Positions 16,150 through 22,019 are shown, counted from the stretch's first letter. The stretch is 64,000 nt of DNA from Escherichia coli (GCF_022846255.1 NZ_AP025682.1), one strand, 5' to 3'. Notes: generated from the sequence alone by a model not told the origin. Program-made: numbers and translations.

Positions 16150-16342
16150 AACTACTCCGAACCGCCCCGACCGTTACCGGTGTAGTTTTCAGGGAGATAC
16201 TGAAAAGGAAAATGACAAAAACCACAATGTCATGAGGGAGCGGAGTGTAGCAGTTTTTGTGACGCAGCGCATAAATTATCCCTGTGACTGGCGTAGCTAA
16301 AATTCTTAGCCATACTGGACAACTCCCCTATGGAGTCATAAT

Positions 16343-16364
16343 CTTAATCAATCATTTGATTAAG
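16343..16364 (+). promoter_or_regulatory. candidate CecR (YbiH) operator: perfect inverted repeat cttaatcaa-tcat-ttgattaag
   Basis: 9-bp perfect inverted repeat with 4-bp spacer immediately upstream of and overlapping the cecR start; typical TetR-family autoregulatory operator. Confidence 0.55.
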
Positions 16365-16377
16365 AATGGACTGTGCG

Positions 16378-17049
16378 ATGAATAATCCTGCCATGACAAT
16401 CAAGGGTGAACAGGCGAAAAAACAGCTGATTGCTGCGGCACTGGCACAGTTTGGTGAATATGGAATGAACGCCACCACCCGCGAGATAGCCGCCCAGGCC
16501 GGGCAGAATATCGCTGCCATCACCTACTACTTCGGTTCGAAAGAAGATTTGTATCTCGCCTGCGCCCAGTGGATTGCCGATTTTATTGGCGAGCAGTTCC
16601 GTCCGCACGCTGAAGAAGCCGAACGCTTGTTCGCACAACCACAGCCGGATCGGGCTGCCATCCGCGAACTGATCCTTCGCGCCTGCAAGAACATGATTAA
16701 GCTGCTCACCCAGGATGACACCGTCAACCTCAGCAAATTTATCTCCCGTGAGCAGCTCTCTCCCACGGCAGCCTATCACCTGGTGCACGAACAGGTAATT
16801 AGTCCGCTACACAGCCACCTTACACGCCTGATTGCCGCCTGGACCGGCTGCGACGCCAATGACACCCGCATGATCCTTCATACCCATGCGTTGATTGGTG
16901 AGATTCTGGCATTTCGTCTTGGCAAAGAAACCATTTTGTTACGTACCGGCTGGACCGCATTCGATGAAGAAAAGACCGAACTGATTAACCAGACGGTGAC
17001 CTGTCATATTGACCTGATTTTGCAAGGATTATCGCAAAGGAGTTTGTAG
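16378..17049 (+). CDS. cecR: TetR-family transcriptional regulator CecR (YbiH)
   Basis: ORF track 16366-17049; start at MNNPAMTIK gives 223 aa; N-terminal TetR HTH; first gene of the cecR-ybhGFSR unit. Confidence 0.92.
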
Positions 17050-18047: not shown

Positions 18048-19776
18048 TGCCGTTATCACGCTGAACGGCCTGGAAAAACGCTTTCCGGGCATGGACAAGC
18101 CCGCCGTCGCACCGCTCGACTGCACCATTCACGCCGGTTATGTGACGGGGCTGGTTGGGCCGGACGGTGCGGGCAAAACCACGCTGATGCGGATGCTGGC
18201 GGGATTACTGAAACCCGACAGCGGCAGTGCCACGGTGATTGGCTTTGATCCGATCAAAAATGACGCTGCGCTGCACGCTGTGCTCGGCTATATGCCGCAG
18301 AAATTTGGTCTGTATGAAGATCTGACGGTGATGGAGAACCTCAATCTGTACGCGGATTTGCGCAGCGTCACCGGCGAGGCACGGAAGCAAACTTTTGCTC
18401 GCCTGCTGGAGTTTACGTCTCTTGGCCCGTTTACCGGACGCCTGGCGGGCAAGCTCTCCGGTGGGATGAAACAAAAACTTGGCCTGGCCTGTACCCTGGT
18501 GGGCGAACCGAAAGTGTTGCTGCTCGATGAACCCGGCGTCGGCGTTGACCCTATCTCACGGCGCGAACTGTGGCAGATGGTGCATGAGCTGGCGGGCGAA
18601 GGGATGTTAATCCTCTGGAGTACCTCGTATCTCGACGAAGCCGAGCAGTGCCGTGACGTGTTACTGATGAACGAAGGCGAGCTGCTGTATCAGGGAGAAC
18701 CGACGGCCCTGACTCAAACTATGGCCGGACGCAGCTTTCTGATGACCAGCCCGCACGAGGGCAACCGCAAACTGTTGCAACGGGCATTGAAACTGCCGCA
18801 GGTCAGCGACGGCATGATTCAGGGGAAATCGGTACGTCTGATCCTCAAAAAAGAGACCACGCCAGACGATATTCGCCATGCCGACGGGATGCCGGAAATC
18901 GACATCAACGAAACTACGCCGCGTTTTGAAGATGCGTTTATTGATTTGCTGGGCGGTGCCGGAACCTCGGAATCGCCGCTGGGCGCAATATTACATACGG
19001 TAGAAGGCACACCCGGCGAGACGGTGATCGAAGCGAAGGAACTAACCAAGAAATTTGGTGATTTTGCCGCCACCGATCACGTCAACTTTGCCGTTAAACG
19101 CGGGGAGATTTTTGGTTTGCTCGGACCAAACGGCGCGGGTAAATCGACCACCTTTAAGATGATGTGCGGTTTGCTGGTACCGACCTCTGGTCAGGCGCTG
19201 GTGCTGGGCATGGATCTGAAAGAGAGTTCTGGTAAAGCGCGCCAGCATCTCGGCTATATGGCGCAAAAATTTTCGCTCTACGGCAACCTGACGGTCGAAC
19301 AGAATTTACGCTTTTTCTCTGGTGTGTATGGCTTACGCGGTCGGGCGCAGAACGAAAAAATCTCCCGTATGAGCGAGGCGTTCTGCCTGAAAAGTATCGC
19401 CTCCCACGCGACCGATGAACTGCCATTAGGTTTTAAACAGCGGCTGGCGCTGGCCTGTTCGCTGATGCATGAACCGGACATTCTGTTTCTCGACGAACCG
19501 ACGTCCGGCGTTGATCCCCTCACCCGCCGTGAATTTTGGCTACATATCAACAGTATGGTAGAGAAAGGCGTCACGGTGATGGTCACCACCCACTTTATGG
19601 ATGAAGCGGAATATTGCGACCGCATCGGCCTGGTGTACCGCGGGAAATTAATCGCCAGCGGCACGCCGGATGATTTGAAAGCGCAGTCGGCCAACGACGA
19701 GCAACCCGATCCCACAATGGAGCAGGCCTTTATTCAGTTGATCCACGACTGGGATAAGGAGCATGGCAATGAGTAA
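18040..19776 (+). CDS. ybhF: ABC transporter ATP-binding protein YbhF (two fused ATPase domains)
   Basis: ORF track 18025-19776; two Walker A ([18 protein letters not shown]), two signature and two Walker B motifs; 578 aa from MNDAV. Confidence 0.93.
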
Positions 19777-20902
19777 TCCGATCCTGTCCTGGCGTCGCGT
19801 GCGGGCGCTGTGCGTCAAAGAGACGCGGCAGATCGTTCGCGATCCGAGTAGCTGGCTGATTGCGGTGGTGATCCCGCTGCTACTGCTGTTTATTTTTGGT
19901 TACGGCATTAACCTCGACTCCAGCAAGCTGCGGGTCGGGATTTTACTGGAACAGCGTAGCGAAGCGGCGCTGGATTTCACCCACACCATGACCGGTTCGC
20001 CCTACATCGACGCCACCATCAGCGATAACCGTCAGGAATTGATCGCCAAAATGCAGGCGGGGAAAATTCGCGGTCTGGTGGTTATTCCCGTGGATTTCGC
20101 CGAACAGATGGAGCGCGCCAACGCCACCGCACCGATTCAGGTGATCACCGACGGCAGTGAGCCGAATACCGCTAACTTTGTGCAGGGGTATGTCGAAGGG
20201 ATCTGGCAGATCTGGCAAATGCAGCGAGCGGAGGATAACGGGCAGACTTTTGAACCGCTTATTGATGTACAAACCCGCTACTGGTTTAACCCGGCGGCGA
20301 TTAGCCAGCACTTTATTATCCCCGGTGCGGTGACCATTATCATGACGGTCATCGGCGCGATTCTCACCTCGCTGGTGGTGGCGCGAGAATGGGAACGCGG
20401 CACCATGGAGGCTCTGCTCTCTACGGAGATTACCCGCACGGAGCTGCTGCTGTGTAAGCTGATCCCTTATTACTTTCTCGGGATGCTGGCGATGTTGCTA
20501 TGTATGCTGGTGTCGGTGTTTATTCTCGGCGTGCCGTATCGCGGGTCGCTGCTGATTCTGTTTTTTATCTCCAGCCTATTTTTACTCAGTACCCTGGGGA
20601 TGGGGCTGCTGATTTCCACGATTACCCGCAACCAGTTCAACGCCGCTCAGGTGGCCCTGAACGCGGCTTTTCTGCCGTCGATTATGCTTTCCGGCTTTAT
20701 ATTTCAGATAGACAGTATGCCCGCGGTGATCCGCGCGGTGACGTACATTATTCCCGCACGTTATTTCGTCAGCACCCTGCAAAGCCTGTTCCTCGCCGGG
20801 AATATTCCAGTGGTGCTGATAGTGAACGTGCTGTTTTTGATCGCTTCGGCGGTGATGTTTATCGGCCTGACGTGGCTGAAAACCAAACGTCGGCTGGATT
20901 AG
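19769..20902 (+). CDS. ybhS: ABC-2 type transporter permease YbhS
   Basis: ORF track 19763-20902; 377 aa from MSNPILSW; ABC-2 permease topology. Confidence 0.92.
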
Positions 20903-20912
20903 GGAGAAGAGC

Positions 20913-22019
20913 ATGTTTCATCGCTTATGGACGTTAATCCGCAAAGAGTTGCAGTCGCTGCTGCGCGAACCGCAAACCCGCGCAATTCTGATTTTACCCG
21001 TGCTGATTCAGGTGATCCTGTTCCCGTTCGCCGCCACGCTGGAAGTGACCAACGCCACCATCGCCATCTACGATGAAGATAACGGCGAGCACTCGGTAGA
21101 ACTTACTCAACGTTTTGCCCGCGCCAGCGCCTTTACCCATGTGCTGCTGCTGAAAAGCCCGCAGGAGATCCGCCCGACCATCGACACACAAAAGGCGTTA
21201 CTACTGGTGCGTTTCCCGGCTGACTTCTCGCGCAAACTGGATACCTTCCAGACCGCGCCGTTGCAGTTGATCCTCGACGGGCGTAACTCCAACAGTGCGC
21301 AAATTGCCGCCAACTACCTGCAACAGATCGTCAAAAATTATCAGCAGGAGCTGCTGGAAGGAAAACCGAAACCCAACAACAGCGAGCTGGTGGTACGCAA
21401 CTGGTATAACCCGAATCTCGACTACAAATGGTTTGTGGTGCCGTCGCTGATCGCCATGATCACCACTATCGGCGTAATGATCGTCACTTCACTTTCCGTC
21501 GCCCGCGAACGTGAACAAGGTACGCTCGATCAGTTGCTGGTTTCGCCCCTCACCACCTGGCAGATATTCATCGGCAAAGCCGTACCGGCATTAATTGTCG
21601 CCACCTTCCAGGCCACCATTGTGCTGGCGATTGGTATCTGGGCGTATCAAATCCCCTTCGCCGGATCGCTGGCGCTGTTCTACTTCACGATGGTGATTTA
21701 CGGTTTATCGCTGGTGGGATTCGGTCTGTTGATTTCATCACTCTGTTCAACACAACAGCAGGCGTTTATCGGCGTGTTTGTCTTTATGATGCCCGCCATT
21801 CTCCTTTCCGGTTACGTTTCGCCGGTGGAAAACATGCCAGTGTGGCTGCAAAATCTGACGTGGATTAACCCTATTCGCCACTTTACGGACATTACCAAGC
21901 AGATTTATTTGAAGGATGCGAGTCTGGATATTGTGTGGAATAGTTTGTGGCCGCTACTGGTGATAACGGCCACGACAGGGTCAGCGGCGTACGCGATGTT
22001 TAGACGTAAGGTGATGTAA
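20913..22019 (+). CDS. ybhR: ABC-2 type transporter permease YbhR
   Basis: 368-aa ORF, paralogous to YbhS. Confidence 0.92.

Follow-up and report, generated by a model that had tools for sequence, protein, structure and literature searches.

How does Escherichia coli control the ATP-binding cassette (ABC) exporter encoded by the cecR-ybhG-ybhF-ybhS-ybhR operon, and what kind of exporter is it? The question is raised by a locus of the E. coli core genome that occupies positions 16150-22019 of the 64,000-nucleotide stretch of DNA analyzed here (E. coli, GCF_022846255.1, NZ_AP025682.1; referred to as the window) and is divergent from rhlE. By megablast, this segment is 100.0% identical to E. coli O150:H6 FEX669, with 2 single-base differences (17621 and 20578) over 5,870 nt, and of 5,426 complete E. 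coli genomes, 5,423 carry the locus, nearly always in a single copy. The gene coordinates are those of the RefSeq annotation mapped onto the window, in which the genes are named cecR, hlyD (= ybhG), ybhF, ybhS, and ybhR. The name cecR-ybhGFSR, given in a first reading of the bare sequence (the original prediction), is borne out by this near-exact DNA match; the five co-directional open reading frames (ORFs) lie where that reading had placed them, and their assignment to a TetR regulator, an HlyD-like adaptor, a double ATPase, and two ABC-2 permeases agrees with Pfam. The operon with its operator is an already known E. coli system: CecR binding to the spacer, repression of the operon, the CecR crystal structure 9i1x, weak antibiotic binding, tetracycline and ethidium efflux, and a link to TolC have all been published. 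What we add is the exact dyad with its deep conservation, an apparent asymmetry of the ATP sites throughout the YbhF family, and support for a Type V rather than a MacB fold of the permeases, all of which should be useful for the design of experiments. Taken together, we consider it very probable that cecR-ybhGFSR is a CecR-repressed, autoregulated operon for an envelope-spanning ABC exporter.

The binding site of CecR has to be sought in the 228-nt spacer between cecR and rhlE. This spacer contains a single strong dyad, a perfect 10-4-10 inverted repeat with the arms TCTTAATCAA (16342-16351) and TTGATTAAGA (16356-16365) around the sequence TCAT. The perfect 9-4-9 repeat proposed before (16343-16364) is real, but the perfect repeat is longer by one base on each side. 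First-order Markov simulations predict 0.73 perfect repeats with 10-nt arms and a spacer of 0 to 10 nt per 64 kb, and the chance of finding one inside the cecR/rhlE spacer is ~0.003. A 32-nt probe centered on the repeat has a single match in each genome, and this match is perfect (100% identity) in 5,408 of the 5,423 E. coli genomes. Within the 64-kb window, the half-site pair has no second convincing match; the candidate at 4111-4130 was rejected, with 3 mismatches corresponding to chance level. As a separate observation, the window contains ~8 other distinct sites with perfect 10-nt arms and a spacer of 0 to 10 nt (at 75, 1565-1568, 8409, 11083, 31284-31287, 44903, 46138, and 59955), compared to the 0.73 expected, and these are probably terminators or repetitive extragenic palindromic (REP) elements.

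Is the repeat conserved? Our cross-species set consists of 80 Enterobacteriaceae species or loci, from Escherichia to Kosakonia and Pluralibacter, with CecR identities down to 73%, and the arrangement of rhlE divergent from cecR-ybhG-ybhF-ybhS-ybhR is found in all 80 loci wherever the contig flank suffices. The core of the repeat, TTAATCAA-N4-TTGATTAA (16344-16351 and 16356-16363), is unchanged in 78 of the 80, the two remaining loci having one substitution each, and the bases flanking the repeat vary freely. The center of the dyad is TCGA in most genera, which results in a perfect 20-bp palindrome, TTAATCAATCGATTGATTAA; it is TCGT in four Kluyvera loci and TCAT (16352-16355) in Escherichia and one other locus, and the Escherichia center therefore breaks the palindrome that TCGA completes elsewhere. 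The outermost positions of the repeat sometimes swap symmetrically between species, for example, from TC..GA to AG..CT. Judged from the alignment, this pattern is a classic phylogenetic footprint of the kind left by a binding site for a dimeric protein. Because the palindrome is single copy, has a core that is near-invariant in 80 species, and is placed on a conserved pair of -35- and -10-like hexamers, we propose it as the CecR operator, in agreement with the original prediction. Yamanaka and coworkers (2016) reportedly mapped, by gel shift and DNase I footprinting, one site with the complete palindrome AATTAGTT-AACTAATT. This reported box is the exact complement of TTAATCAA and TTGATTAA.

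The promoter hexamers of cecR were deduced from conservation across species and not from a consensus scan. CTGGAC is invariant or nearly so in the 80 species and belongs to the conserved block cTGGACa at 16315-16322; most species retain T1, A2, and T6 of the -10-like hexamer TAATCT. CATAAT (16337-16342) was also considered as the -10 element and rejected, with a 15-nt spacer and a T6 that is lost in several genera. With TAATCT as the -10 element, both this element and the transcription start of cecR would lie within the operator, the start being near the center of the dyad, and this would correspond to the usual geometry of steric repression by TetR proteins. Such an arrangement also bears on the idea that the palindrome acts as an RNA hairpin in the 5′ untranslated region of cecR and controls translation or mRNA stability, rather than being a DNA site for a protein. 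Although a fully transcribed hairpin would have a folding energy of −12.9 kcal/mol (z = −3.4 compared to shuffled sequences) and the symmetric changes at the outer positions would suit a stem, the -10-like hexamer overlaps the left arm, so that the predicted transcript begins inside the repeat and contains the right arm only. Furthermore, nearly all of the 80 species have the very same sequence in the 8-bp arm cores, beyond mere complementarity, which is the pattern of protein recognition and not of a stem, and the published SELEX (systematic evolution of ligands by exponential enrichment), ChIP-exo (chromatin immunoprecipitation with exonuclease digestion), and reporter data place the TetR protein CecR on spacer DNA. 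We therefore regard a role as an RNA hairpin as very improbable.

The operator reading is further in line with the published binding data. Genomic SELEX revealed a single target of CecR (YbiH), the spacer between cecR-ybhGFSR and rhlE, and reporter assays demonstrated that CecR represses the cecR operon and activates rhlE. ChIP-exo agrees with SELEX and gave a palindromic, AT-rich CecR motif. The dyad center is located roughly 85 to 116 bp upstream of either plausible -10 element of rhlE. Could CecR bind elsewhere in the spacer, with the repeat serving a different protein or being an AT-rich palindrome by accident? The spacer does have a second block of strong conservation at ~16212-16285, but it is proximal to rhlE, its best dyad has 8 nt with a gap of 30 nt, and it is better explained as promoter and leader of rhlE; the 10-4-10 repeat is the sole strong dyad of the spacer. 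The repeat also has the position and symmetry that are usual for TetR operators, and we give a binding site elsewhere hardly any credence.

The claim that the repeat overlaps the start of cecR did not stand. The repeat ends at 16365 and the ATG of cecR is at 16378, 12 nt downstream; this ATG is the RefSeq start, aligns with the start codon in all 80 loci, and is always found 11 to 14 nt past the repeat. An in-frame ATG at 16366-16368, directly 3′ of the repeat, opens the longest ORF and was rejected as the start codon, being present only in Escherichia; it probably misled the earlier reading.

The regulator itself is well defined. CecR matches PF00440 (TetR_N; E = 2.4e-14) and PF09209 (CecR_C; E = 6.9e-35), scores 418.4 bits against the NCBIfam equivalog NF008587 (cutoff, 365), and matches PDB entry 9i1x over residues 1-223 (E = 9e-148). 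CecR is described as core to Escherichia and Salmonella, and evolution under carbonyl cyanide m-chlorophenylhydrazone (CCCP) selected mutations in cecR, the spacer, and ybhR. The crystal structure 9i1x (FEBS J 2025) has a closed, buried tunnel of 35 Å in which polyethylene glycol (PEG) fragments are trapped; a DNA-bound structure is not part of that paper. The dissociation constants given there are 79 µM for cefepime, 6 mM for cefoxitin, and above 50 mM for chloramphenicol, and the authors, pointing to homologs in pathogens of plants and insects, raise the question of the real effector. The view of the original prediction that neither inducing ligand nor native substrate is known is outdated in that published candidates exist, but it is fair in substance, with weak affinities and substrate lists that disagree. 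The checks suggested with that prediction have largely been carried out already.

Turning to the exporter, YbhF has two ABC_tran stretches (Pfam) and had been described as an ATPase with two complete nucleotide-binding domains (NBDs). This applies to Walker A, the Q-loop, Walker B, and the catalytic glutamate, which are present in NBD1 (GPDGAGKT, Q87, and LLLDEP) as well as in NBD2 (GPNGAGKS, Q409, and LFLDEP). It does not apply to the H-loop and the signature motif: in an alignment of the two halves of YbhF, NBD1 has Ser196 where NBD2 has His518, and NBD2 has LPLGF (461-465) where NBD1 has LSGGM. A canonical LSGGQ signature together with an H-loop histidine was not found in both halves. The conservation of these deviations was surveyed in 118 diverse double-NBD homologs from a library clustered at 50% identity; a homolog search with YbhF, which returned only proteins with at least 74% identity, most of them at ~89% or above, was unfit for this purpose. 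LSGGM is the NBD1 signature in 114 of the 118 homologs, and the signature of NBD2 is mostly LPxGx. The H-loop histidine of NBD2 is present in all listed patterns but three, and the corresponding position of NBD1 is almost never a histidine (2 sequences among the listed joint patterns). In a canonical head-to-tail NBD dimer, one composite ATP site is lined by the NBD1 H-loop together with the NBD2 signature. Because both deviations of YbhF share this one site, the family appears, from its motifs, to combine a degenerate with a consensus ATP site, a feature also known from many heterodimeric ABC exporters. Feng et al. (2020) listed the motifs of YbhF and did not mention the asymmetry; they reported ATPase activity, efflux of tetracycline, ethidium, and Hoechst, and tolerance to Na+ and Li+.

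Which fold do the permeases have? YbhS and YbhR, which are 25% identical to each other, match PF12698 (ABC2_membrane_3; E = 3e-39 and 4e-51, respectively) as well as PF01061 and PF12679, and neither has an FtsX or MacB_PCD match even at E ≤ 10. In the PDB, the two proteins have no sequence relatives other than insect ABCH-9C and, with weak similarity, KpsM. An AlphaFold (AF2) model of YbhR, with a predicted local distance difference test score (pLDDT) of 75 and a predicted template modeling score (pTM) of 0.62, has its best fold match in the PDB in ceramide-bound ABCH-9C (E = 3e-12; template modeling score [TM], 0.61), followed by ABCG25/1/5-8/2, ABCA3/4/7, NosY, and KpsM, all of which are Type V exporters; no MacB entry is among the matches listed. 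The model is supportive rather than conclusive, and it points, together with the Pfam matches, to an ABC-2 (Type V) fold of YbhS and YbhR and not to a MacB/FtsX fold, although YbhFSR was grouped with the MacB/FtsX family in a 2021 review. The PDB contains no structure of YbhF, YbhS, YbhR, or YbhG. YbhG matches PF16576 (HlyD_D23), PF13437 (HlyD_3), and PF13533 (lipoyl-like), scores 603 bits against the equivalog PRK03598 (cutoff, 393), and has EmrA, MacA, and MexJ as its nearest solved relatives; its N terminus is, by inspection, hydrophobic and without a lipobox cysteine. Indirect evidence links YbhG to TolC: thermal proteome profiling revealed that YbhG is destabilized in a tolC deletion, and affinity purification of YbhG with TolC is cited in that paper. 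YbhG probably bridges to TolC.

These relationships also raise the question of the true cargo. The circuit could be as described, with the antibiotic phenotypes being side effects and with an amphiphile from the cell itself or from the host, such as a lipid, as the cargo of the pump and the inducer of CecR. The NBDs of YbhF are closest in the PDB to the ABCA lipid exporters ABCA7/4/3/1 (E ~1e-70), the closest match of the YbhR model is an ABCH-9C structure with bound ceramide, and the tunnel of CecR trapped PEG chains. This would also be in line with the weak affinities of CecR for drugs, with homologs in plant and insect pathogens, and with the lipid-related genes ybhP-clsB-ybhN (RefSeq annotation) that neighbor the operon, as well as with reported substrate lists that disagree (cefoperazone and chloramphenicol; tetracyclines and ethidium; Na+/Li+). 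However, the likeness to ABCA and ABCH reflects a fold class that also holds the drug exporters ABCG2 and DrrAB, and genetic data tie the operon to drug sensitivity; on balance, we consider an amphiphile as the true cargo and inducer unlikely, but worth keeping in mind.

Start/stop overlaps had been taken as a sign of tight translational coupling along the operon, and such overlaps are present at two of the junctions. The ybhG/ybhF junction, ATGAATGA, has an overlap of 8 nt that is kept in 70 of 78 species, and the ybhF/ybhS junction, ATGAGTAA, likewise overlaps by 8 nt, and all of 71 species have an overlap of 8 or 11 nt here. In contrast, cecR and ybhG (TAGTGATG) are abutting, with a 2-nt gap or, with a GTG start, a 1-nt overlap; across species, the distance is −4, −1, or +2 nt. 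ybhS and ybhR are separated by a gap of 9 to 10 nt (10 nt in the window), and ybhR has its own Shine-Dalgarno sequence. In many genera, this gap is expanded to 30 to 135 nt by REP-like palindromic units such as GCCTGATGGCGCTGCGCTTATCAGGCCTA (L008, L010, L015, and ~30 other loci; equivalent to 20903-20912 of the window), which makes the ybhS/ybhR junction a hot spot for insertions that is not translationally coupled.

In our model, a homodimer of CecR (TetR family, subfamily D) bound to the dyad at 16342-16365 would cover the -10 element and the start site and exclude RNA polymerase, so that cecR and the four genes downstream would be expressed at a low level and the circuit would be autoregulated. 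A ligand entering the tunnel would release CecR from the DNA, as is the behavior of TetR family proteins, and the derepressed operon would then be transcribed as one mRNA. Neighboring genes would be coupled in translation where stop and start codons overlap (the ybhG/ybhF and ybhF/ybhS junctions) and where cecR abuts ybhG. YbhF would provide both NBDs on one chain, and of its two ATP sites one would be of the consensus type and the other degenerate; YbhS and YbhR would assemble into a heterodimeric ABC-2 membrane unit with periplasmic domains; and YbhG, anchored by a single N-terminal helix, would serve as the periplasmic adaptor, probably reaching TolC. The literature provides the single CecR site, the repression, the ATPase activity, the antibiotic and ethidium phenotypes, and the loss of YbhG stability without TolC. 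The promoter hexamers and the start site, a steric mode of repression, the stoichiometry of the subunits, the degenerate site, and the coupling to TolC are predictions.

Several points weigh against this model. A sigma-70 consensus scan of 16100-16450 called no promoter; the proposed cecR hexamers are subthreshold, the -10 element matching at 3 of 6 positions, and the transcription start is a predicted one only. The match of the repeat with the reported footprint is a probable one and relies in part on secondary citations. The ChIP-exo paper describes inverted repeats that are 7 nt apart, which is not obviously the same as a 4-nt spacer. The weak antibiotic affinities make a drug-induced release of CecR in vivo uncertain, and the YbhR model is of moderate confidence only. 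Lastly, deletion of cecR, which is expected to derepress the pump, is reported to raise drug sensitivity, an awkward result for a simple repressor. The positions of all features are summarized in Table 1.

Table 1. Genes, predicted regulatory elements, and candidate RNA helices of the cecR-ybhGFSR locus and its flanks (positions counted from the first nucleotide of the window)
Feature	Position	Strand	Basis or remark
CecR operator (predicted here), perfect 10-4-10 inverted repeat TCTTAATCAA TCAT TTGATTAAGA	16342-16365		Repeat, chance, conservation, copy number
-35-like hexamer TGGACA, cecR promoter (inferred)	16316-16321	+	5/6 match to TTGACA
-10-like hexamer TAATCT (TAnnnT, inferred)	16339-16344	+	17 nt past the -35-like hexamer; last 3 nt inside the operator
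cecR (ybiH), TetR-family autorepressor, 223 aa	16378-17049	+	RefSeq, Pfam, PDB 9i1x and 1t33, NF008587; start codon by conservation
ybhG, HlyD-family periplasmic adaptor, N-terminal membrane anchor, 331 aa	17052-18047	+	RefSeq, Pfam, PRK03598
ybhF, fused double-NBD ABC ATPase, 578 aa (NBD1 ~1-230, NBD2 ~330-550)	18040-19776	+	Pfam, motifs
ybhS, ABC-2 permease, 377 aa	19769-20902	+	Pfam, NCBIfam
ybhR, ABC-2 permease, 368 aa	20913-22019	+	Pfam, fold model
rhlE, divergent gene, 3′ end frameshifted in the window	14815-16149	-	ORF, RefSeq mapping
Extended -10-like element TGCTACACT, rhlE	16244-16252	-	Sequence
P1 hairpin AUGACA/UGUCAU, rhlE leader	16212-16217/16228-16233	-	Candidate helix
P1 loop GUGGUUUU with downstream AAAACUAC, pseudoknot or alternative fold	16218-16225/16182-16189	-	Candidate helix
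P3 hairpin ACCG-GUAA-CGGU, rhlE leader	16170-16181	-	Candidate helix
ybhQ, convergent to ybhR	21981-22391	-	ORF, RefSeq mapping

The rhlE side of the spacer deserves attention of its own. Its rhlE-proximal half (~16150-16285) is far more conserved than the mid-spacer in 73 loci, and it may encode an unannotated structured RNA leader of rhlE. In an alignment of 72 distinct sequences, 94% of the cells of the candidate helices pair, compared to 35 to 54% with the partners slid by 1 to 3 columns, and both partners have changed in 6 of 18 pairs, compared to 0 to 2 in the slid controls. This covariation derives from only 2 to 3 lineages, and the support is real but thin. An Rfam search of both strands of the cecR/rhlE spacer gave no family match. 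A 10-bp helix that would sequester the Shine-Dalgarno sequence of rhlE (16150-16159/16178-16187) was rejected because its variable positions do not covary, and the outer pairs proposed by RNAalifold, including the -10-like TACACT, were set aside since they may not be transcribed.

The rhlE gene of the window differs from that of FEX669 by an 8-bp deletion at ~14860 (CGCCGAGA, one of the units that make up an imperfect direct repeat). It frameshifts the basic C-terminal tail of RhlE and gives a protein of 444 instead of 453 amino acids. The deletion is shared by none of the 5,423 complete E. coli genomes, in which identity over 201 nt reaches 96.2% at best, and it is due either to a frameshift peculiar to this strain or to an error in the assembly. 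Between dinG and rhlE, a partial pseudogene with a NADAR domain is present (RefSeq; FEX669 locus L001, 1209-1406; ~14350-14550 of the window). At the other end of the locus, ybhQ overlaps the last 39 nt of ybhR, an arrangement that is kept in 71 loci. Two database records stand out by their labels: a contig of Chryseobacterium sp. 18061 (L072, CACSKA010000002.1) carries a fully syntenic, enterobacterial rhlE-cecR-ybhGFSR locus with a CecR that is 76% identical, and a YbhF homolog with 90% identity (P0009) is labeled as a plasmid protein of Pseudomonas marginalis. Both records are probably mislabeled or contaminated.

If the asymmetry of the ATP sites and the link to TolC are true, a core locus of the Enterobacteriaceae that is tied to drug sensitivity would encode a distinct class of tripartite pump, and the rhlE leader is a separate lead on the control of RhlE, a DEAD-box helicase. 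A more far-reaching proposal is that YbhGFSR is the prototype of an undescribed architecture, in which a Type V exporter is coupled to TolC by an HlyD-type adaptor, is driven by a single-chain ATPase with a degenerate site, and exports an amphiphile, such as a lipid, with an amphiphile rather than the antibiotics tested so far also being the inducer of CecR. In this full form, we regard the proposal as speculative and rather doubtful.

How does the system compare with known ones? The closest is the CecR (YbiH) regulon of E. coli K-12, cecR-ybhGFSR/rhlE, with which the window shares an identical locus, genes, gene order, and spacer; the differences are at the strain level only and include the 8-bp deletion in rhlE. 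With TetR/tetO, AcrR, QacR, and RamR, CecR has in common a helix-turn-helix N terminus, a C-terminal ligand domain, and a palindromic operator on the promoter of an adjacent efflux system. It differs from these regulators in that cecR is not divergent but heads the operon that CecR represses, in that the operator is a dyad of 20 to 24 bp, (TT)AATCAATC|GATTGATT(AA), with an internal duplication of AATC, in that CecR belongs to subfamily D and has a closed tunnel cavity, and in that CecR is reported to also activate the divergent rhlE.

Among the tripartite pumps, MacAB-TolC (Type VII) likewise consists of an ABC ATPase, an adaptor of the HlyD family, and TolC (for YbhGFSR, probably), and MacA is a detectable relative of YbhG. 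However, the membrane fold of YbhS and YbhR differs (ABC2_membrane families, without FtsX or MacB_PCD), and MacB is a homodimer with one type of NBD, whereas YbhFSR is proposed to have a fused, asymmetric double NBD and a heterodimeric pair of permeases. The best NCBIfam model for YbhF, YbhS, and YbhR is RbbA (NF033858), with 515, 227, and 183 bits, respectively; these scores are far below the equivalog cutoff of 1,050, and YbhFSR is therefore a paralog and not RbbA. RbbA is an ATPase with one permease fused to it (~909 amino acids; NBD-NBD-permease), whereas YbhF, YbhS, and YbhR are separate polypeptides; fused NBD-NBD-permease relatives of 900 to 1,000 amino acids are also among the nearest homologs of YbhF. 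The nearest paralogous system to YbhGFSR is yhiI-rbbA-yhhJ, the E. coli cluster yhiI-rbbA(yhiH)-yhhJ, which has the same set of parts: an adaptor of the HlyD type, an ATPase with two NBDs, and two permeases of the ABC-2 type.

The Type V exporters ABCH-9C, ABCA1/3/4/7, ABCG, NosFY, KpsMT-KpsE, and DrrAB have the NBD and transmembrane domain families and the predicted fold in common with YbhFSR. None of the solved examples joins an HlyD-type adaptor, a fused double NBD, and two distinct permeases, and KpsMT-KpsE provides the precedent for a Type V exporter that works with a periplasmic partner.

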